64,000 nt of DNA from Pseudomonadota bacterium (GCA_043825735.1 JBDRRP010000159.1:1-64000); one strand, 5' to 3'; counted from the stretch's first letter, positions 3,401-13,382 are shown. Numbers and translations are program-made. The notes: a model not told the origin generated them from the letters alone.

Positions 3401-4813
3401 TCAGGCGCTCACGAAGTCGGTGAATGCCGCGCAGATGATTTCCATATCACCCTCTTGAAGGGTTCGCAGGTCCATGAGGAATCGGTCGTTTTCCACTCTT
3501 CCGATGATCGGCGGCCGATGCCGTCGCATGGCGCGCTCGATCGCACCCGCCGATCGGTCATTGATCGTAACGGCCACGCAGGTGGTGGGCAGCTCCAGAG
3601 TGGGCAGGGAGCCGCCGCCGGGCCGTGATGTGGCGTCCACCAGCGCCGCGCTCAGCCCGGCAGGCGCCAGTGCGCTCAGGCGGGTCTGGAGGGTCTCGGC
3701 CTGTTGCCGGATGATGGCGCCATCGAGGGTGATCATCCGAAGGGTGGGGACGCGGTCCACAGCGGTGGCCTCGTCCCGGTAGAGCCGCAGAGTGCTTTCC
3801 AGTGCCGCCAGGGTGAGCTTGTCGATGCGCAGTGCGCGGGTAAGCGGGTTTTGGCGAACACGTGCGATCCACTCGGTTTTGCCGACGATAATGCCCGCCT
3901 GGGGACCGCCCAGCAGTTTGTCTCCACTGAAAGAGATAAGGTCGGCGCCGCTGGCCACAGAATCCTGAACAGTGGGCTCCCGGACCAGTCCGTAGGCTGA
4001 AAAGTCCACCAGCGTACCGCTGCCCAGATCCTCCATCACCGGGACGCCGAGGCGCCGGCCGATATCCACCAGCTCGGCCAGCGGCACCTGGCTGGTGAAA
4101 CCCTGGATGCTGAAATTGCTGGTGTGCACCTTGAGCAGCAAACCGGTCTTGTCGGTGACCGCCGTTTCGTAGTCCCGGGGATGGGTCCGGTTGGTCGTGC
4201 CCACTTCCTTGAGCGTGCAGCCGCTTTTTTCCATAACGTCGGGTATCCTGAAGGACCCGCCGATTTCAACCAGCTCTCCCCGTGAAATCACCACTTCTTT
4301 GCCGCGCGCCACCGTGTTCAGGCACAGCAGTACGGCGGCGGCGTTGTTGTTGACCACCATGGCCGCTTCGGCCCCGGTGAGCTCGCAGACAAGGCTGTCC
4401 ACAGCCGTATAGCGGGAGCCGCGGCGGCCAGCGGCGAGGTCATATTCCAGATTCGAGTAATTGACGGCGACCTCTTGCAGGTGCGCCAGGGCCGACGGCG
4501 CGAGCAGGGAGCGCCCCAGGTTGGTATGGACGACGACGCCGGTGGCGTTGACCAGGGGCCGCAGATTGAGGGCCATGGCGGCATCGGTCTCCATCTTGAG
4601 CCGCTGATGAAGGGCTACCGGCGTCACTGTCGGCGCTGCCTCATCGGTGCCGGTGTTCAGAATAGCCGTGCGCGCACCCTGGATGACAGCCCGCACGCAG
4701 CGCACCAGTACGCTTCGGGGGACCTCGGACAGATCATCATCGCCAGCGGCAAAGAGCAGCATCTGATCCACGCTGGGGAGCTGTTTGAGCAAGGTCTGTC
4801 GGTGGTGATCCAT
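3401..4813 (-). CDS. selA: L-seryl-tRNA(Sec) selenium transferase
   Basis: NATGVVVHTNLGRS, NLEYDL, VNNNAAA, SRGELVEIGGSFRIPD and FSGDKLLGGPQAG (PLP lysine); start taken as ATG 4813. Confidence 0.97.
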   Translation of the reverse strand: MDHHRQTLLKQLPSVDQMLLFAAGDDDLSEVPRSVLVRCVRAVIQGARTAILNTGTDEAAPTVTPVALHQRLKMETDAAMALNLRPLVNATGVVVHTNLGRSLLAPSALAHLQEVAVNYSNLEYDLAAGRRGSRYTAVDSLVCELTGAEAAMVVNNNAAAVLLCLNTVARGKEVVISRGELVEIGGSFRIPDVMEKSGCTLKEVGTTNRTHPRDYETAVTDKTGLLLKVHTSNFSIQGFTSQVPLAELVDIGRRLGVPVMEDLGSGTLVDFSAYGLVREPTVQDSVASGADLISFSGDKLLGGPQAGIIVGKTEWIARVRQNPLTRALRIDKLTLAALESTLRLYRDEATAVDRVPTLRMITLDGAIIRQQAETLQTRLSALAPAGLSAALVDATSRPGGGSLPTLELPTTCVAVTINDRSAGAIERAMRRHRPPIIGRVENDRFLMDLRTLQEGDMEIICAAFTDFVSA

Positions 4814-4829
4814 GGTGCCGTCCGGTTGC

Positions 4830-6182
4830 TTATTCTGTATTTTGTTCGGTTTCAAAGGTGAAGGCGCCGTCTGGGATGATTTCCACGATTTCCTGGAACC
4901 GATCCGGAGAAAACCCGATGACATGGAGCCGTTCGGTGAGTGCCTGCGTGCTTACCCGTTCCAGCTCGAGGCCGGTGTTGAAGCGGGACATGAGCAGATC
5001 GGCCAGGTAGACGATGTGCACCAGTTTCGTGTGGCGATCCGCCGCTTCGGGGCAGTGATGGTGGCGGATGGTGGTCATGAGGCTGTCGGGAAATCCCCAC
5101 AGCTGCCCAAGCGTGCATCCGATATCCGTATGGTCCACGCCAAATTGCTGCCGTTCGATATCCTGAAACGAGGTGTCGCCTTCATGGACGTTTCGGTAGA
5201 GCAGGGGGTAGGCGGATGTCACGTACTGGTCCAGCACGACTTTTCCGATGTCGTGCAGGAGCCCTGCGGTATAGGCGATGGCCGGCGCGACCAGGCCGGT
5301 GACGCCGGCCAGTTTTTCCGCGATCAGCGCGGTGCCGACGGCATGGTGGTAGAGCCCCCCCTTGCTCAGGGAATATCCGGAGCCGGTGTTTTCGAACAAA
5401 CCGCTGACAGCCGCGGAGATGACCAGCCGCAGGAAGATATCCTTGCCCAGATAGATCAGGGCATGATCGAGGCTGTCGATGGGGTTGCGACGGGCGTAGA
5501 GGGCAGAATTGCACAGCTTCAGGGTCATGGCGCTGATGACCTGGTCCTGGCGGACTTCGTCGGCGATGCCGATGACATCGAATTCGTCATTTCCCATGAG
5601 GCGCAGGATTTTGAGCGCCACTTGGGGTATGGGTTGCAGGCGTTCGATGCTCGACTTGATTTCTTTTTCATGGGGGGGGGGGATCGAGATATGGCTGCCT
5701 GCCTTGTCTGCGCCGACCGGGTCGATGCGGCACTCCCAGCTCTGCATGTTGAGGCTCATGCAGCATGAAAACACGCCCCCGGTCTCGGCATGCGCCACTT
5801 TGATGCCTTCTCTGGCCAGAAGCTGCCGTGCGATTTCGGCGGTGCGGCCGCCGATATCCAGATCCAGATCCCGCTGGCTCACCGGACCCACCAGGGCGCC
5901 GCCGCCCACCCATGCGATGAGGTCCTCTTTTTGCGCGCCGGCGGCATAAAGGGCGTTGATGAAGAGCGGCAGCCCCACCGAGGCGTATTTTTCGCGCTGG
6001 AAGGTGCTCTCCAGGGAAACCGGTTCCGGCAGCAGCAGGTGGCTCAGGCCGCCGACACCGGCTTTTCGGTCGAATACGGCCACAGCCACGCAGGTGCCCA
6101 GGAAGGCTTGAAGGAGGATGGGGCGGTGCGGCCCCACGAAATAACTGCCCGAGGGGACGTGGTGTCGTTGAAGCATGCGCAT
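4830..6182 (-). CDS. CheD-like deamidase fused to an HDOD domain
   Basis: N-terminal LGTCVAV..SHLLLP, GGA, IGGRT, ETGG (CheD); C-terminal DQVISAMTLKLCNSA, AGLLHDIGK, HHH (HDOD). Confidence 0.85.
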   Translation of the reverse strand: MRMLQRHHVPSGSYFVGPHRPILLQAFLGTCVAVAVFDRKAGVGGLSHLLLPEPVSLESTFQREKYASVGLPLFINALYAAGAQKEDLIAWVGGGALVGPVSQRDLDLDIGGRTAEIARQLLAREGIKVAHAETGGVFSCCMSLNMQSWECRIDPVGADKAGSHISIPPPHEKEIKSSIERLQPIPQVALKILRLMGNDEFDVIGIADEVRQDQVISAMTLKLCNSALYARRNPIDSLDHALIYLGKDIFLRLVISAAVSGLFENTGSGYSLSKGGLYHHAVGTALIAEKLAGVTGLVAPAIAYTAGLLHDIGKVVLDQYVTSAYPLLYRNVHEGDTSFQDIERQQFGVDHTDIGCTLGQLWGFPDSLMTTIRHHHCPEAADRHTKLVHIVYLADLLMSRFNTGLELERVSTQALTERLHVIGFSPDRFQEIVEIIPDGAFTFETEQNTE

Positions 6183-6331: not shown

Positions 6332-7894
6332 TCATCCCGGGTAGCCGGTGATGTCCCGGATGCGCTTGTAAAGGGGCGCCAGGCGGTCGTAGAGCCGGCG
6401 GTAGACATCCCGGTAGAGGGCGTCGTAGAGGCGCACGTTTTCGGCGATCGGGTCGATGGTCTCACTGATTCGGGTCATGGCAGCGACGGCAGCGGTAAAA
6501 TCGGGATGGATCCCCAGGCCCACCGCCAGATCCATGGCCGCTCCGAGTCCGGAGGTTTCATAAAGATGCGGGCGCGCCGTTGGCAGGCCGAAGACGTCGG
6601 CGGTGACCTGCATGGCGTGACGGCTCTGGCTGCCGCCGCCTGAGACGACCAGGCGCCGGATGGGAATGCGGGTCTTTTTTTCGATGCGCTCTTTTCCTTC
6701 CCGCAGCGCGTAGGCCAGCCCTTCCAGGATGGCACGGTAGAGGTGGCCACGGGTGTGCACGTCGCCAAATCCGATGACGCTGCCCTTGGCTTCGGGCCCG
6801 GGGCGCTTGAGCCCCGGTGACCAGTAGGGCTGGAGCATCAGTCCCATGGCGCCGGGGGGGATGTCTTCGATGAGATCGTCGAACAGCGCCTCGACTTCCA
6901 TACCCTCCCGGGCGGCTTTTTCGATTTCCGGATGGCCGAATTCCTCCTTGAACCAGCTCACCATCCAGTAGCCCCTGAAAATCTGCACCTCAAGGGTGTG
7001 GTGCCCCGGCACGGCAGACGGGTAGGGGGGCAGCAGGGGCACGGCTTCCACGTATTTTTTGTGGGTGACGTTGATGGTGGCCGTGGTGCCGTAGCTCAGG
7101 CAGCCGACATCGGGGGTCAGGCTTCCGGAGCCGATGACCTCGCAGGCCTTGTCGGCGGCCGCTGCGATGAGCGGAAGGCCGGCCGGTATCCCCGTGGCGG
7201 CCGATGCCTCGCGGGAGATCTCCCCCAACGGCGCTCCGGGGGGGACGAGCTCGGGAAGGACGGAAGGGTCCATGGGCAGGGCCTGCCATTTCCAGTCCCA
7301 GGCGGCGGCCCACTGCATGCGCCGGTAGTCGAAGGGAAGGTACGCCACGCAGCAGCCGAGCGCGTCGCGGAATCCCCCGGTGAGCCGGTGGGTCAGGTAG
7401 CCCGAGAGCAGGAGCAGTTTGTGGGTGGCCTTCCAGATGTCGGGCTGGTGGGTCCGGATCCAGTTGGCCTCGGCCTCGGCTTGAAAATAGGCGATGGTGC
7501 CGGCAAGGCCCAGCATTCTGAACAGCAGACCCCAGGGGCCCTTGAGAAAGGGCAGGCCCGTGGTTTTTCGCTGATCCAGCCAGAGGATGGCGGGCCGCAG
7601 GGGCCGGCCGTCGGCGTCCACATTGATGAGGGTGCTGCGCTGGGTGGTCAGGGCAACGCCGGCGATACGGGCCCTGTCCACGCCGCGGCGATGCCACAAT
7701 CCCTGGCAGGCGGTGCACAGGGCGTTCCAGAAAACCGCCGGATCCTGTTCGGCCCAGCCGGGATGGGGCGAGACGTACGGGGTGAAGGTGATTTTTTCTC
7801 CGGCTACCATGTTGCCGGCAGGATCGAACACCAGGGCCTTGAGGCTCTGGGTACCGTTGTCAATGGCCAGCAGCAGGTCTTTGGTGTCGCTCAT
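6332..7894 (-). CDS. FGGY-family carbohydrate kinase
   Basis: [27 protein letters not shown] and SGGGSQS; ATG 7894 with AAGGAG RBS. Confidence 0.92.
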
Positions 7895-7975
7895 GGACGG
7901 TTCTCCTTGAGGCGTGCAGGCAATGCGCAGCAAAGGATGCTATATGAAGCACATCAAAAGGTTCAACACCCAATT

Positions 7976-8112
7976 TTGACAAACCCGTAAAAAGTCTAAA
8001 ATCACCACAGAGGACGCAGAGAGCACAGAGATAAATCATTAATAATTCATGGTATTCTCTGTGGCCCTCTGCGATCTCTGCGGTTTAAAAACACTTTTTA
8101 CGGGTTCATCAA
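7976..8112. mobile_element. MITE-like element with 20-bp terminal inverted repeats and an internal nonamer hairpin
   Basis: ttgacaaacccgtaaaaagt (7976-7995) vs actttttacgggttcatcaa (8093-8112), 18/20 complementary; internal (CRCAGAG)n/(CTCTGYG)n. Confidence 0.7.
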
Positions 8113-8180
8113 TTTTCAGGAAGGCGTTTTTTTGCATCGGCAACATCACCGAAAATAGTGCCCCGGAGGCCGCGGGCGCC

Positions 8181-8383
8181 GCAGGTATCCGCTTTTTCGA
8201 CCCCGTCACCCAAAACGGCTGAACACGTCCGCCGCCGCAGGGATAAAGGATTTGACCCTCAGCAGTCGACAGCCGCCGCAGTTTATGCCGCCATTTCGTT
8301 GCGCCGGGTCCGATCATACTGTGGCGGCCGGGTGCTGACAGCGATCATTTGAAGAAGACGAGACCGAAAAAGCGGATACCTGC
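8181..8383. repeat. ~200-bp element bounded by a perfect 19-bp inverted repeat; partial second copy at ~25670-25800
   Basis: gcaggtatccgctttttcg / cgaaaaagcggatacctgc; the core gcagggataaaggatttgacc...ccatttcgttgcgccgggtccgatca recurs from 25671. Confidence 0.85.
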
Positions 8384-8500
8384 GCCGCCATCATTTCCCA
8401 ACACCGCGCATCCCGTCGGCTGGACATAATAATTTTCCTTGGTGATCGTTCCGGTGAGCGTTGACTATAAACCCTCCGTGTTCTCTGTGTACTCCGTGGT

Positions 8501-10237
8501 TCAATATTCTTTTTCTTCGTGATCTTCGTGTCCTTCGTGGTTCTCCCCCCTTCCGTCCCGCAGCCCCAGGGTGCCGCCGGGGTTCATGATGCCGCGGGGG
8601 TCGAAATGGGTTTTCAGCGTCTGCAGGACCGCCATCTGGGCGCTGCCCAGATGCGCCTTCATCCATGGGGCCAGCAGTTTTCCCACCCCGTGGTGGTGGC
8701 TCAGCGAGCCGCCGGCGGCGACGATTTCGGTGACGATGCCACGGTGGAAGGCACGAAAATCCGCCAGATCTCGAAACCGGCCGATGAAGATGAAATACAG
8801 GTTGGTCCCCTGGCCGTAAAAGTGGGAGCAGTGCGTCATGCAGACGGTATGAGGACGATTTTTCACAAAACGCCGCACCCGCTCGTGGACGGCCGCCAGC
8901 TGGTCCCAGGCCACACCGGTTTCCAGGGTGTCGATGCTGATGCCCAGATCATTCAAGTCTTCGCGCATATAAGGATCGCTGAAACGGCCGTGCTCCCACC
9001 GGCGCACCGGGTACCCGGTGGTGAAAACACCGCCGTGGCCGCGTGCGATGCGCCGGACCACGCGGTTGATGTTGCGCGAGAACCCGCGCTCGCCTTCGGT
9101 GCGGCCGATGCACAGGCAGCGGCTGCCGGGTTTGAGTCCTCGCGCTATGAGATACCGATCGACGGGCGTGCCGGCCAGACCGTAGTGGTGCATGGCCACA
9201 TCGGTTTCTTCGGGGTCCGATATTCTCAGCAGCGCCGGCATGCCGCATTCGGCCTGAGAGATGTCCCTCATGGCCGCCACGGCCGACGCCCATGTGGGAA
9301 AGATGAAACTGAAGCGTTTTCTGGTTTCCGGACGGTAGCGGAAGATCTTCATCGTCACGGCCACCACGACGCCAAAAGCGCCCTCGCTGCCCGTGAGGAT
9401 GTCGTTGACCTTGGGACCGGTGGCCGTTCCCGGATAGGGCAATGTAACGACTTCGCCGGCGGGGGTCACCACATCCTGGCCCACCACCAGATCGCAGGCA
9501 TCGCCGTAGTAGGAGGACAGCTGGCCGGAGCCCAGTGTGGCCACCCACCCGCCCACCGACGAGTGCTCGAAGCTCTGCGGGAAATGGCCGCCGGTGTAGG
9601 GGTGGGCAGCGCCCAGGCTCCGGGGGGCGGTGTTGAGCAGGCGCTCATAGGCCGGGCCCAGCATACCGGCTTCCACCGTCACGGTGCGGTTGGCTTCGTT
9701 GAGGGCCACCAGTCGATTCATGTGGGTCTGCATGACCAGAATGATGCCGCCGGCCGGACACTGGAGACCCAGGCACACGGAACTGCCGCCGCCATACACT
9801 GTGAGCGGGATACGCTCCCGGTGGCACCATTGCACCAGCGCCACCACATCACGGCGGCGCCGGGGATGCACCACGGCGTCGGCCACCGGATAGCCCTCGA
9901 GGGCGCCGGCGCGCAAGGTCAGTGCCTCCTCAGTGGTCTTGCCGGTGGAATGCCGCAGCCGGCCATACGTGGACGTATCCACGTTGGCGGCACCGGCCAA
10001 GTCGATGAGCGCGGCAAGCTGCTCTTTGGAAAGGCGTGAGGGCATCTGGGCCGCTACCGGTTGCTCTCCGGTCGCCCGGGGGCGGGTCTTGTCCCGGGCA
10101 TCCAGGGCAAGGGCCGTCGATAGATAGTCCATGAGCCGTCGACCCGGATGACTGAAACGCTCGGGGGCCCCCCATTTGAAAATGGATCGGTAGGAGCCCG
10201 CCTTCGGTGGTGCCGTCGTCCACTGGTGGTCTGTCAT
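8501..10237 (-). CDS. FAD-linked oxidoreductase, alkyl-dihydroxyacetone-phosphate synthase-like
   Basis: YGGGSSV, GHFPQSFEHSSVGGWVAT, GSEGAFGVV, RISDPEET, NLYFIF, SHHHGVG and DPRGIMNPG; ATG 10237 with CAGGAG RBS. Confidence 0.88.
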   Translation of the reverse strand: MTDHQWTTAPPKAGSYRSIFKWGAPERFSHPGRRLMDYLSTALALDARDKTRPRATGEQPVAAQMPSRLSKEQLAALIDLAGAANVDTSTYGRLRHSTGKTTEEALTLRAGALEGYPVADAVVHPRRRRDVVALVQWCHRERIPLTVYGGGSSVCLGLQCPAGGIILVMQTHMNRLVALNEANRTVTVEAGMLGPAYERLLNTAPRSLGAAHPYTGGHFPQSFEHSSVGGWVATLGSGQLSSYYGDACDLVVGQDVVTPAGEVVTLPYPGTATGPKVNDILTGSEGAFGVVVAVTMKIFRYRPETRKRFSFIFPTWASAVAAMRDISQAECGMPALLRISDPEETDVAMHHYGLAGTPVDRYLIARGLKPGSRCLCIGRTEGERGFSRNINRVVRRIARGHGGVFTTGYPVRRWEHGRFSDPYMREDLNDLGISIDTLETGVAWDQLAAVHERVRRFVKNRPHTVCMTHCSHFYGQGTNLYFIFIGRFRDLADFRAFHRGIVTEIVAAGGSLSHHHGVGKLLAPWMKAHLGSAQMAVLQTLKTHFDPRGIMNPGGTLGLRDGRGENHEGHEDHEEKEY

Positions 10238-10282
10238 GGGGTATCTCCTGAAGGTGTGACATTTCCAAACTATTAAATTTTT

Positions 10283-10600
10283 CGGTTCTCTATGAAGCTC
10301 CAGCTGTCCGGTGGCCCGGTCCATCGGCGCCCGGACACGCGGCATGAATGAGCCTGCCCGCCAAGGGCGCCCCGTGGTTGACGGGTGTTATCGAAATCGC
10401 TATCGGGATCAAAATCGCAATCGGCGGTTGCCGTTGCCACGGTGGCGGCAACTGGCGAACCAGGGACAAAATAATTGCCAACACCAACACCAACACCAAC
10501 ACCAACACCCGATACCGATAGCGATACCGATAGCGATTTCGATTTCGATGTTCACACGGCGTTGTTGTGCAAACGGAACGTATTTATGACAATGGCTATA
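10283..10600. repeat. Composite dispersed repeat (left part matches the 26000-26240 element; right end matches the 13147/63367 family)
   Basis: Near-identical to 26000-26240 over ~250 bp; (CAACAC)x5 and (GATASC)n tracts; ends ttgtgcaaacggaacgtatttatgacaatggctata. Confidence 0.92.
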
Positions 10601-10627
10601 TGCTCCGACTGGGGTTTGAGTTGTTTT

Positions 10628-10652
10628 GTAGGGGAGGGGTTTATCCCCTCCC
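10628..10652 (+). repeat. GTAG-type REP palindrome
   Basis: GTAG-gggagggg-ttta-tcccctccc; similar copy at 55908-55933. Confidence 0.75.
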
Positions 10653-10731
10653 TCAATCCGCAACGACTAATTTCATGTGTCCGATCTGTTCCTGCCCATT
10701 CACAAGCGAATTATGCATGATCGCCACCATG

Positions 10732-12273
10732 TCATGTCGGCGGGGCATACGCCCGGTTCCAGAGTGCAGTGTACGCAGCCGTTTCCTGCAGCCACCGCTC
10801 ATCATTCCATCCCAACCGGCTCTGACAGACGGCTTTGATTTGGCGCAGGTGTCCGCGTGCGCCGTCGGGCAGCAGCAGACCGATGCGCACCCGGCGCAAC
10901 AGAAGATCGTCCAGATGCCGGATCTGTTCGGTTTCAGCGGCCAGGGCCAGCTCTGCCCACAGGGTCGCGGTGCCGGGCACCGGTGCGAGAAGCTCGCGGT
11001 GGGTATCCGCCATCCGGCGCGCGGCCTTGAACCCGAACCGTGCCACCAGACGGCGCAGATGGGCCGTGTCGACCGATATTGCCTCAGGGGGCGCCTCGGC
11101 AGCCGGCGCCGGCGCGTCGGGGGTTTCGGGCGGCAGGTCGTGCGCGGCTTTGGCCAGGGCATCTGCCGCCAGTCGTCGAAAGGTGGTCAGTTTGCCGCCG
11201 GTGACGGTCACCAGGCGGTGTTCGGCCCAGACCCGGTGCTCGCGGGATTCATCGGACGGTGCCCGGCCGCCGTGGCTGAGCACCGGACGCACGCCGGCAA
11301 AGGATGACAGGGCGTCTTCCGTCTCGATCCTCAGACCCGGAAAAATAAACCGGACGCCATTGAGCAGGTAGCGGGCTTCTTCGATACTCACGGTGGGTTC
11401 GGTGGATAGATCCCCGTGGTGGTCCACATCCGTCGTCCCGACCAGAGTGGCGCCTTCCCAGGGGATGATGAACATGGACCGGTGGTCGGACGGGTGGACA
11501 AAACTGAGAGCCGTGCTCAGGGGAATCAACCGGCTGGGAAAGATCAGGTGGCTGCCTCGCAAGGGGCGAATGTGGCCGTTTTTGACCGGCGCCGGGTGGA
11601 TGGTCTCTGCCCACACACCGGTAGCGTTGATGACGCCGGCGGCGGTGAGCGTCCGGCGATGGCCGGTTTCGCTGTCCATGGCCACGATACCGGTGACATC
11701 CCCCCGGTGGTCGCGGCGGATCCGTTCGACCATGGTATAATTCAGCGCGCTGCCGCCCGCACGCAGTCCCTCGCCGATGAGATGCAGGACAAGCCGCGCA
11801 TCATCGGTCTGGGCATCGGTAAAAGTGAAGGCGCCCATGAGCGCCTCCGCACGCAGACCGGGAAGACGGGCTTGGGTCTCGGCAAGGTCCAGATAGCGGT
11901 GCTGCCAGCGGCCGGCCACCATGTCGTAGATGGAAAGGCCGGTCTCCAGGGCGAGTCGTCCCGGGCCGATGTCCTTGAACACGGGCACCGTAAAATGGAT
12001 GGGACTGACCAGATCCGGGATGGTCTCAAGCAGATATTCCCGTTCCTTGACGGCCTGGCGCATGAGCCCGAGCTGCCCCTGCTTGAGGTAGCGCAACCCG
12101 CCGTGGACCAGTTTTGAACTTCGACTGGATGTGCCCCAGGCGAAATCGCGGCGTTCCAACAGCAGGGTGCGCCAGCCGCGCCGGACCGCTTCATCAAAGA
12201 CACCGGCGCCGGTGATGCCGCCGCCGATGACGATGAGCTCCCAGTGGCCCGGTATGTCGCCCAGCGGATTCAT
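10732..12273 (-). CDS. glpD: FAD-dependent glycerol-3-phosphate dehydrogenase/oxidase family protein
   Basis: IGGGITGAG, DFAWGTSSRSSKLVHGGLRYL, DDARL, NATGVW, GTTD and GGKLTTFR; ATG 12273 overlaps the fadR stop. Confidence 0.9.
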   Translation of the reverse strand: MNPLGDIPGHWELIVIGGGITGAGVFDEAVRRGWRTLLLERRDFAWGTSSRSSKLVHGGLRYLKQGQLGLMRQAVKEREYLLETIPDLVSPIHFTVPVFKDIGPGRLALETGLSIYDMVAGRWQHRYLDLAETQARLPGLRAEALMGAFTFTDAQTDDARLVLHLIGEGLRAGGSALNYTMVERIRRDHRGDVTGIVAMDSETGHRRTLTAAGVINATGVWAETIHPAPVKNGHIRPLRGSHLIFPSRLIPLSTALSFVHPSDHRSMFIIPWEGATLVGTTDVDHHGDLSTEPTVSIEEARYLLNGVRFIFPGLRIETEDALSSFAGVRPVLSHGGRAPSDESREHRVWAEHRLVTVTGGKLTTFRRLAADALAKAAHDLPPETPDAPAPAAEAPPEAISVDTAHLRRLVARFGFKAARRMADTHRELLAPVPGTATLWAELALAAETEQIRHLDDLLLRRVRIGLLLPDGARGHLRQIKAVCQSRLGWNDERWLQETAAYTALWNRAYAPPT

Positions 12274-13001
12274 CGGCCGTTGGCCGGGACAAACCCGGCC
12301 TCCATGCGTTGCCAGATGCGGATGCTTTCGTTCATGGCGGCCGAGACAACGCTGGCCGTATCCTCCGGGTCCCAGGTCAGGGCAGCCTCCAGGCGGTGAT
12401 AAAAAGATGACGATGCCAGCCGCGCGTCGGTGGTGGCGAAATACGCCGGTGCCAGTTGGAAATATAGGTCTTTGAAGTCGTTGATGATGAGAAGAAACAG
12501 CGGGTTTTTCGACAGTTGGCACAGGCTTCGCTGCAGGCGCCAGTCGAAGTCGACCCATCGCTCCGGCGCGTGGCCCGGGGCCGGCGCTTCGCCTAACATT
12601 CGGCGCAGTTCGTCCGGGGCGTTGCGGGCGGCCGCGGCAGCGGCCGGCGGCAGGAAAACGGCCCTGAATTCGAGCAGGTCGGTAATGAACCGCTCCGGCA
12701 GGTGCTTCCCGTATCGGGCCAGGGTTCCCAGAAGCCCGAAGCCGCCCGTATCCCAGAAGTCGGCGACCCGGGTGGGTTTGCCGTGCCGGATATGCACCCA
12801 TCCTTCGCGGCCGAGCCGCTGGAGGGCCTCACGCAGTGTGGGGCGGGTGATGCCCATGGCCTCGGACAGCGCCCGTTCGGCGGGCAGGTCCGTGCCGGGC
12901 GCGTACGTCCCCTCCAGAATCCCGGTAATGATGTGGTCCTCGGCATATGCGGCGGGGTGCCGGAATCGCCTGATGCTGGGTGCGGTGTTGACTGATCTCA
13001 T
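12270..13001 (-). CDS. fadR: Acyl-CoA-responsive GntR-family regulator FadR
   Basis: LPAERALSEAMGITRPTLREALQRL and GWVHIRHGKPTRVADFW match E. coli FadR ([42 protein letters not shown]). Confidence 0.85.
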   Translation of the reverse strand: MRSVNTAPSIRRFRHPAAYAEDHIITGILEGTYAPGTDLPAERALSEAMGITRPTLREALQRLGREGWVHIRHGKPTRVADFWDTGGFGLLGTLARYGKHLPERFITDLLEFRAVFLPPAAAAAARNAPDELRRMLGEAPAPGHAPERWVDFDWRLQRSLCQLSKNPLFLLIINDFKDLYFQLAPAYFATTDARLASSSFYHRLEAALTWDPEDTASVVSAAMNESIRIWQRMEAGFVPANGR

Positions 13002-13007
13002 AGTGGT

Positions 13008-13041
13008 AAGAGGTCATACCAGTTGTGCGAGCTGCTGTCAA
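13008..13041 (-). promoter_or_regulatory. FadR operator overlapping the putative fadR promoter
   Basis: Minus-strand AACTGGTATGACCTCTT (13024-13008) resembles E. coli FadR boxes (e.g. ATCTGGTACGACCAGAT); TTGACA at 13041-13036. Confidence 0.7.
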
Positions 13042-13146
13042 CACGCGATGTATACTTTCCAGCCGGCGGTCGCCTGTGCGCTGTCGGGGAGGGGTTTACT
13101 TCCATTGCGCTGGCTTAGAGTGTTTATCGGAATAATGTCCCGTTTC

Positions 13147-13263
13147 ATCTTCAAGATCCTCTCGGGATCGAAATCGATGTTTTCCACGGCCGATAGCGAT
13201 TTCGATTTCGATGTTCATCAGGAGGTGTTGTGCAAAGGGAATGTATTATGACAATGGCGATAT
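13147..13263. repeat. Dispersed repeat, family ending TGACAATGGCTATA
   Basis: Aligns with 63367-63507 and 10543-10600. Confidence 0.85.
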
Positions 13264-13382
13264 CCATTGACAGCCATGGTAATAACCTAAATGAACAATG
13301 CTAAGCCTTCAATAATTCCCTCTTTAACCGTTTCTTCAGATCGGGTATGCAGGAGCCATTCATCTTTTTCCCGGAGGACGAC

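Follow-up and report, generated by a model that had tools for sequence, protein, structure and literature searches.

The closest described relative of the system reported here is an operon of Pseudomonas aeruginosa, PA3026-PA3025-PA3024(-PA3023), which lies under the regulator GliR/PA3027 and is tied to glycerolipid genes. According to the part of its description available to us (PMC8151288), PA3026-24 is induced more than 100-fold alongside the genes for phospholipase C (130-fold) and a lipid kinase (47-fold), its deletion is without phenotype on glycerol and on Biolog plates, and the three-gene set has been given a biosynthetic in-silico scheme and no assigned function. Here we describe a module of the same three enzyme types, an FGGY kinase, a GlpD-like dehydrogenase and a flavoprotein resembling alkyl-dihydroxyacetone phosphate (alkyl-DHAP) synthase (AGPS, also ADPS; EC 2.5.1.26), encoded together with a FadR regulator at positions 6332-13041 of a 64,000-nucleotide stretch from a Pseudomonadota bacterium (GCA_043825735.1, JBDRRP010000159.1:1-64000; hereafter the window). 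We tentatively read the module, at somewhat less than an even chance, as an oxygen-independent catabolic or salvage route for long-chain 1-O-alkylglycerol via alkyl-DHAP.

Several other systems invite comparison. In Myxococcus xanthus, the AGPS MXAN_1676 goes with a FAR-GNPAT operon (FAR, fatty acyl-CoA reductase) in the accessible part of a preprint (bioRxiv 2025.10.10.681575), and four myxobacterial loci in our own comparison match it, the AGPS gene adjoining a FAR-acyltransferase fusion. E. coli ygcU/ygcE likewise pairs an AGPS-like flavoprotein with an FGGY kinase bearing a 'DK' motif, but YgcU, at 484 amino acids, is short and has no cap helix, the hydrophobic helix of the module kinase is missing in YgcE, and the ygc cluster includes transporters and an SDR as well as flavoproteins and an Fe-S protein. 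An actinobacterial cluster, glpD-tetR-AGPS-like-YegS/Rv2252 lipid kinase, shares GlpD and a Gln221-type AGPS-like enzyme but has a lipid kinase for the FGGY kinase, a TetR regulator and a shorter cap segment. The tetrahydrobiopterin-dependent monooxygenase AGMO would share the substrate class and is an unrelated protein, as described in the portions consulted of PMC7827237 and PMC3520006.

The likeness to PA3024-PA3026 proposed by an earlier, sequence-only reading of the window is upheld, in that the same three enzyme families are clustered in both (PMC8151288, in part), as judged by family and clustering. The window's module differs in having FadR and a conserved box instead of an AraC activator, in its order of dehydrogenase, AGPS-like enzyme and kinase, and in having no adjoining lipid kinase. 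Beyond the published set, we tested the conserved box, the gene fusions, the exchange of two AGPS-like clades on one kinase and dehydrogenase scaffold, and the signatures at Gln221/Asp421 and in the kinase pocket. The features of the module are:

12270-13001, minus strand: fadR, an E. coli-type GntR/FadR_C regulator of 243 amino acids (profile and PDB matches)
10732-12273, minus strand: glpD-like gene for a flavin adenine dinucleotide (FAD) dehydrogenase of 513 amino acids, translationally coupled to fadR (profiles and alignment to solved structures)
8501-10237, minus strand: AGPS-like FAD-linked protein of 578 amino acids, in its own clade (PDB matches, model fold and trees)
6332-7894, minus strand: FGGY kinase of 520 amino acids, with an open reading frame finder start at 7933 (profiles and residue comparison)
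13008-13024, minus strand: FadR-type operator-like box of 17 bp, 6 nucleotides 5' of the fadR start codon (conservation among relatives)

None of the four genes is interrupted; all lie on one strand, as had been claimed, namely the minus strand, and their families are supported by profile or PDB matches. The translational coupling of fadR and glpD is also real, since the glpD-like start overlaps the fadR stop (12270-12273).

A scan of GTDB genomes returned 489 stretches encoding relatives, the best 80 of which we analysed, many of them cut by contig ends. Among these 80 loci the kinase was present in 63, a GlpD-like gene in 57 and both in 50, implying that the grouping is not due to chance. 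Gene order varied, and 28 loci had a FadR-like gene (E-value 1e-8). By their records the relatives come from Desulfobacterota, Chloroflexota, Spirochaetota, SAR324, Bacillota, Holophagaceae and Bacteriovoracaceae. Within a 301-genome sample of the phylum, in which kin are not independent, 24 of the 28 other genomes with an AGPS-like protein of the window's clade held the module kinase; in the phylum sample, 37 of 40 genomes with the kinase held an AGPS-like gene, compared with 59 of 300 overall. The distribution is patchy, with no match in the one same-genus genome searched.

Fusions of GlpD to AGPS occur in L031, P0125 (a cluster of 9) and P0124, and they support the proposed enzyme order of kinase, dehydrogenase and AGPS-like protein. 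The weakest of them is L031, where the AGPS N-terminus is shortened. P0124, a partial Elusimicrobiota protein of 1639 amino acids, joins a GlpD-like part to a tandem pair of AGPS-like units, and its C-terminal tail is hydrophobic. What looked like a kinase-AGPS fusion in L086 was dismissed as a reading-frame artefact arising from a fragmented kinase. At 6 of the 80 loci a DAO+BFD / Pyr_redox / DUF1667 set, which we take to be an alternative glycerol-3-phosphate dehydrogenase, stands in place of GlpD, and at two actinobacterial loci a lipid kinase of the YegS/DAG type sits where the FGGY kinase would be. Separately, in L178 (genome G093) and L105 the opposite strand carries a DAG/YegS-type kinase some 2 kb away from the AGPS-like gene, and the locus has no FGGY kinase; the G093 genome gave no match to the module kinase at an E-value of 1e-90.

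The regulator's best PDB match is E. coli FadR (E-value 5e-47, full-length alignment), it contains the FadR_C domain, and it scores 192.7 bits against PRK04984 (NCBIfam; cut-off 189) and 175.7 bits against TIGR02812, below the cut-off of 249.2. The C-terminal ES-x3-W motif, which presumably serves the response to acyl-coenzyme A (acyl-CoA), is retained. The 17-bp box resembles the E. coli FadR consensus; because the search pattern was derived from that consensus after the window had been viewed, the relatives alone serve as a test. Of 31 loci examined, one (L043) was dropped at a contig end, and the inverted core was found in the 180-base stretch surrounding the fadR start at all 30 that remained, against a background of 0.058 per 180 bp. 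The 17-mer was identical to that of the window in 8 of the 30, including two from Chloroflexota. Its position 6 nucleotides before fadR and its presence at every usable locus suggest that fadR represses itself through this putative operator. Its place at the translation start suggests that acyl-CoA would lift the repression, as in catabolic fad genes. The FadR-type regulator and the conserved box support the earlier claim of lipid-linked regulation.

The flavoprotein has the VAO/PCMH fold, with FAD_binding_4 and FAD-oxidase_C domains, and its nearest solved relatives are AGPS enzymes. Its best PDB matches were Dictyostelium AGPS (E-value 2e-58) and guinea-pig AGPS (2e-55), followed at a distance by the next family (1e-21). 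A predicted model (pLDDT 83) superposed on AGPS (PDB 2UUU, 4BBY) with a TM-score of about 0.78 at 27-28% identity, sharing the cap helix. The protein keeps the equivalents of AGPS His300, Arg419, Arg515, Tyr578 and His615-617. It scored 124 bits against the GlcD profile TIGR00387, for which the cut-off is 568, and has His-His-His where GlcD has a GEH motif. All three AGPS hallmark motifs named in the sequence-only reading are present, yet they are not evidence of acyl/alkyl exchange. Among 13 short relatives linked to YgcU, sugar or Fe-S genes, His218, Arg338 and Tyr481 were conserved in all 13 and the triple histidine in 11, so the hallmarks are common to E. coli YgcU and sugar-linked proteins and are not diagnostic of AGPS.

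We placed the protein using a 70-row quick tree and a 31-row careful tree, drawing on 30 of the 80 close loci and on a comparison set of 40 weaker-hit regions (this phylum and Myxococcota), seven plasmid regions and E. coli ygc; matches shorter than 380 residues were excluded and the rows were non-eukaryotic. The window's protein fell in its own clade (support 100/100), separate from the FAR-linked clade (100/100), which alone contains the four myxobacterial loci with a FAR-acyltransferase fusion. Also separate were a clade of about 530 amino acids, which has the same kinase, dehydrogenase and FadR partners, and an actinobacterial clade with GlpD and a lipid kinase. The same kinase and dehydrogenase pair occurs with two AGPS-like clades about 35% alike, the window's and the 530-residue one, the latter in the PA gene order. 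The long, lipid-type clades nevertheless grouped together (98/99): the window's clade joined the enzymes linked to FAR, to an acyltransferase or to a lipid kinase, and YgcU and the proteins linked to sugar ABC or CCG Fe-S genes fell outside. Phylogeny of these non-eukaryotic rows thus puts the protein outside the FAR-linked AGPS clade and inside the long, lipid-type group. In addition, 8 of 10 rows of the 530-residue clade (L119-L127, L145, L146) read His-Gln-His for His-His-His, and a further AGPS-like clade (L130-L133, L147, L149-L151, L160) has no kinase or GlpD neighbour, has His239 and Arg469, and lacks the cap helix.

Residue patterns separate these clades. All 9 rows from the FAR clade or with an acyltransferase link, like both PDB AGPS structures, have Asp at the position equivalent to AGPS Asp303, whereas every one of the 44 rows in the three clades linked to the kinase or GlpD has Gln there (Gln221). 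Position 421, equivalent to Ile511, was acidic (Asp or Glu) in 31 of 31 rows of the window's clade. The cap segment (Arg338-Cys374), whose helix we assume to face the membrane and the acyl tunnel, measured 36-37 residues in 31 of 31 rows of the window's clade and 38-39 in the 530-residue clade; rows of biosynthetic context and PDB AGPS have 44-46, and all but one of the 13 short-group rows have 17-23. The window's enzyme differs from AGPS in clade, in these two residues, and in having a kinase and a dehydrogenase as partners rather than FAR and GNPAT.

The two partner enzymes score below their named families. The dehydrogenase gives a close alignment to solved structures of glycerol-3-phosphate dehydrogenase and oxidase (GlpD/GlpO) but falls below all cut-offs for named glycerol-3-phosphate dehydrogenases (PRK12266, 276.5 versus 360 bits; PRK13369, 254.8 versus 352), and we therefore call it GlpD-like. 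The FGGY kinase is below all named kinase cut-offs, including GlpK TIGR01311 (140 versus 590 bits), and a search of the ESM Atlas returned generic FGGY names only. It retains the equivalents of GlpK Arg83, Trp103 and Asp245 and carries the YgcE-like 'DK' motif. Across 66 module kinases, the GlpK Glu84 position was never Glu, while Phe270 was Thr and Gln246 was Lys in all 66. If these GlpK residues contact the distal hydroxyl, as we take them to do, the changes would open the pocket at the hydroxyl bearing the sn-1 chain. A hydrophobic helix spans residues 112-135 (median 0.62, versus 0.13 in 11 other kinases).

From the genes and their families, co-occurrence, fusions, box and residue patterns, we infer the following substrates and direction of reaction. 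The route would start from 1-O-alkylglycerol, the lipase-resistant remnant of ether lipids. The kinase would phosphorylate its free primary hydroxyl, giving 1-O-alkyl-glycerol-3-phosphate, and the GlpD-like flavoprotein would oxidise C2 to yield alkyl-DHAP, with electrons passing to quinone. The AGPS-like enzyme would then cleave this product by the covalent flavin chemistry of AGPS, freeing the fatty alcohol and handing the DHAP unit on, either to water or to a fatty acid. Beta-oxidation would take up the alcohol, the resulting acyl-CoA would release FadR from its box, and no step would require oxygen. A lipid-like substituent is favoured by the FadR box, the grouping with the long enzymes, the cap segment, the lipid kinases at the two actinobacterial loci, the altered kinase pocket with its hydrophobic helix, and the co-induction of PA3026-24 with phospholipase C and lipid kinase genes. 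Absence of FAR and of an NADPH-type reductase from the module points to flux towards removal of the substituent. Because a lipase alone could free an ester, while an ether would first need oxidation at C2, an alkyl ether would best justify the detour. A kinase followed by a quinone-linked dehydrogenase would produce a 1-O-substituted DHAP, the sole kind of molecule that AGPS is known to handle according to the accessible part of PMC3520006. Of the earlier proposal that the module either cleaves or makes ethers without oxygen, the cleaving half stays live, at a tentative, not quite even, likelihood.

A number of observations weigh against cleavage of alkyl-DHAP. AGPS is known as a synthase, the accessible literature records no net breakdown of alkyl-DHAP by it, and no assay of any member was found in a search that left most subscription journals uncovered. 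Titles and abstract openings on anaerobic or bacterial alkylglycerol cleavage, Rv2251 and AGPS residues likewise contained no study of such a pathway or module. Neither an alcohol dehydrogenase nor a lipase was a conserved neighbour. Where the window's clade has the acidic residue 421, guinea-pig AGPS has Ile511 and Dictyostelium AGPS has Leu, and the substitution may imply that the substrate is polar. Cap length marks the groups imperfectly: the two actinobacterial enzymes linked to lipid kinases have 26-28 residues, 9 rows that sit within the long group have 18-20, and one short-group row has 50. The hydrophobic helix also appears in the kinase of L135, which lies beside a CCG Fe-S-linked enzyme. 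Finally, the Ger/PlsA domain PF09989 shows no link to the module: 230 of the 301 genomes in the phylum sample contain it, as do 19 of the 28 with the module.

Alternatively, the module might degrade a small soluble glycerol derivative or polyol, with the AGPS-like protein acting as a dehydrogenase or C-O lyase on a short substituent, an explanation we regard as unlikely. The acidic residue 421 would fit it, as would catalytic motifs common to YgcU and sugar clusters of Roseibium and Paracoccus, the 'DK' motif shared with YgcE, and the occurrence of Gln221 in 9 of 13 short-group rows too. However, the enzyme belongs to a different clade with a longer cap segment, a FadR box would be out of place, no CCG Fe-S partner was seen among 106 proteins scanned from the loci, and no transporter was conserved and co-directional (the commonest, MFS, was at 7 of 80 loci, on the opposite strand where mapped). 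The Biolog screen of P. aeruginosa mutants was also without effect in the consulted part of PMC8151288. Slightly less probable still is scavenging of ester lipids, in which monoacylglycerol or lysophosphatidic acid would be converted to acyl-DHAP and then hydrolysed or trans-acylated. All of the lipid-side evidence fits this equally well, and acyl-DHAP is the natural AGPS substrate (PMC3520006, in part). Sporadic neighbours among the 80 loci, with families assigned from one scanned representative per protein cluster, included a glycerophosphodiesterase (4), a metallophosphoesterase (8) and an alpha/beta hydrolase (6), which would suit scavenging, and one SCP2 fusion, although none of these lipid-flavoured neighbours was conserved across the set. 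Yet one lipase and the host's own GlpK and GlpD would suffice for esters, so that three dedicated enzymes seem redundant.

Synthesis or remodelling of ether lipids without oxygen, from acyl-DHAP and fatty alcohol to alkyl-DHAP, is improbable in our view, although it is also the in-silico scheme of Kotecka et al. True AGPS enzymes are the nearest solved structures, Dictyostelium AGPS shares many cap residues with the window's clade, and the Ger/PlsA domain was not found in the host genome, which is 100% complete. A sister subclade (L165-L171, comprising family f21 and G043) has an HAD phosphatase preceding the AGPS-like gene and acyl-CoA ligases nearby, and 8 of 9 f21 genomes are without PF09989. 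Module-type kinase lies elsewhere in 4 of 5 genomes of this subclade that were searched, making it a candidate variant of different direction. Against synthesis stands the Asp303/Gln221 division, which follows FAR or acyltransferase partners on one side and the kinase or GlpD on the other. Two FAR-acyltransferase queries matched 0 of 100 loci of the window's clade; in the host genome their matches covered the acyltransferase half only, and the Pfam FAR domain gave only weak matches to short frames of SDR size. Flavin-dependent GlpD runs in the oxidative direction, so nothing in the module would reduce alkyl-DHAP. The synthetic half of the earlier proposal is not supported: no FAR was found in the 100 loci or the genome, the module has no NADPH-type reductase, and the protein lies outside the FAR-linked clade. 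Its tie to the ether lipids of sulfate reducers was not sustained either, since the available part of PMC13159169 assigns these to Ger, the D. alkenivorans enzyme that makes alkyl ethers when expressed in E. coli and that accounts for the ethers of that species. Least probable by far is an ordinary glycerol-use operon with a passenger flavoprotein. The close alignment of the GlpD-like protein to solved enzymes would agree with it, but the kinase scores far below GlpK and lacks Glu84 and Phe270, and the genome holds a GlpK with the canonical motif on contig C139 and a GlpD, beside a glycerophosphodiesterase-like neighbour, on contig C86.

If the alkylglycerol breakdown route is correct, it would offer a testable account of ether-lipid turnover in anoxic habitats, built on three enzymes that can be purified, and the silent P. 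aeruginosa mutant would be explained. In the accessible part of a 2021 review, AGMO is the sole enzyme breaking the alkylglycerol ether bond (PMC7827237). The route also bears on lipid-biomarker surveys that take agps homologues as production capacity: in the portions available, such homologues are reported from 59 of 262 Black Sea Desulfobacterota metagenome-assembled genomes (PMC11868695) and are likewise read as production capacity in those from sponges (bioRxiv 2026.06.23.733905). None of the 20 weaker-hit regions on the Desulfobacterota side of our sample fell in the FAR-linked clade. In its broadest form, the proposal is that saturated alkyl glycerol ethers are cleaved without oxygen in sulfate reducers, Chloroflexota, spirochaetes and Bacillota by an AGPS-family flavoenzyme running backwards on alkyl-DHAP supplied by a dedicated kinase and dehydrogenase, with enzymes of the Gln221/Asp421 type being cleavers, so that many environmental agps hits at present taken for ether-lipid producers would be consumers; this wider claim is doubtful, at perhaps one chance in three. 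Were the substrate an ordinary soluble compound, the module would be one more orphan catabolic operon.

Coupling at the locus is limited to fadR and glpD, and the remaining two gaps, of 606 and 494 bp, contain the following features outside the module:

7955-8420, no strand: genome-wide intergenic repeats in the gap between the AGPS-like and kinase genes (225 blastn matches)
10268-10720, no strand: genome-wide intergenic repeats in the gap between the glpD-like and AGPS-like genes (132 blastn matches)

With both gaps filled by such repeats, a single four-gene transcript is no more than putative. Repeat depth reaches 200 at about 7985-8045, and a scan of the locus for promoters and terminators gave matches at chance level. 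Together with a third stretch (13092-13270), the repeats have 78-225 genome matches each and include short tandem hexamer runs and palindromes.

The host genome contains dsrA and 12 acyl-CoA dehydrogenase matches, suggesting a sulfate reducer equipped for fatty-acid oxidation, which speaks for the catabolic direction. A second GntR gene, on contig C93, adjoins a gene that by eye resembles a glycyl-radical enzyme. On a Streptomyces plasmid (sp. NBC_01562, L140, 4340-7578), an SDR and a lysophospholipid acyltransferase accompany an Asp303-type AGPS-like gene whose product branches as sister to the FAR-linked AGPS enzymes; the three genes may form an ether-lipid operon of a streptomycete. In the window, a CheD and HDOD fusion (4830-6182, minus strand) lies directly 3' of the kinase gene, which it also adjoins in L038 and L045, probably a positional association. 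The open reading frame at 3401-4924 (minus strand) resembles by eye the selenocysteine synthase SelA.

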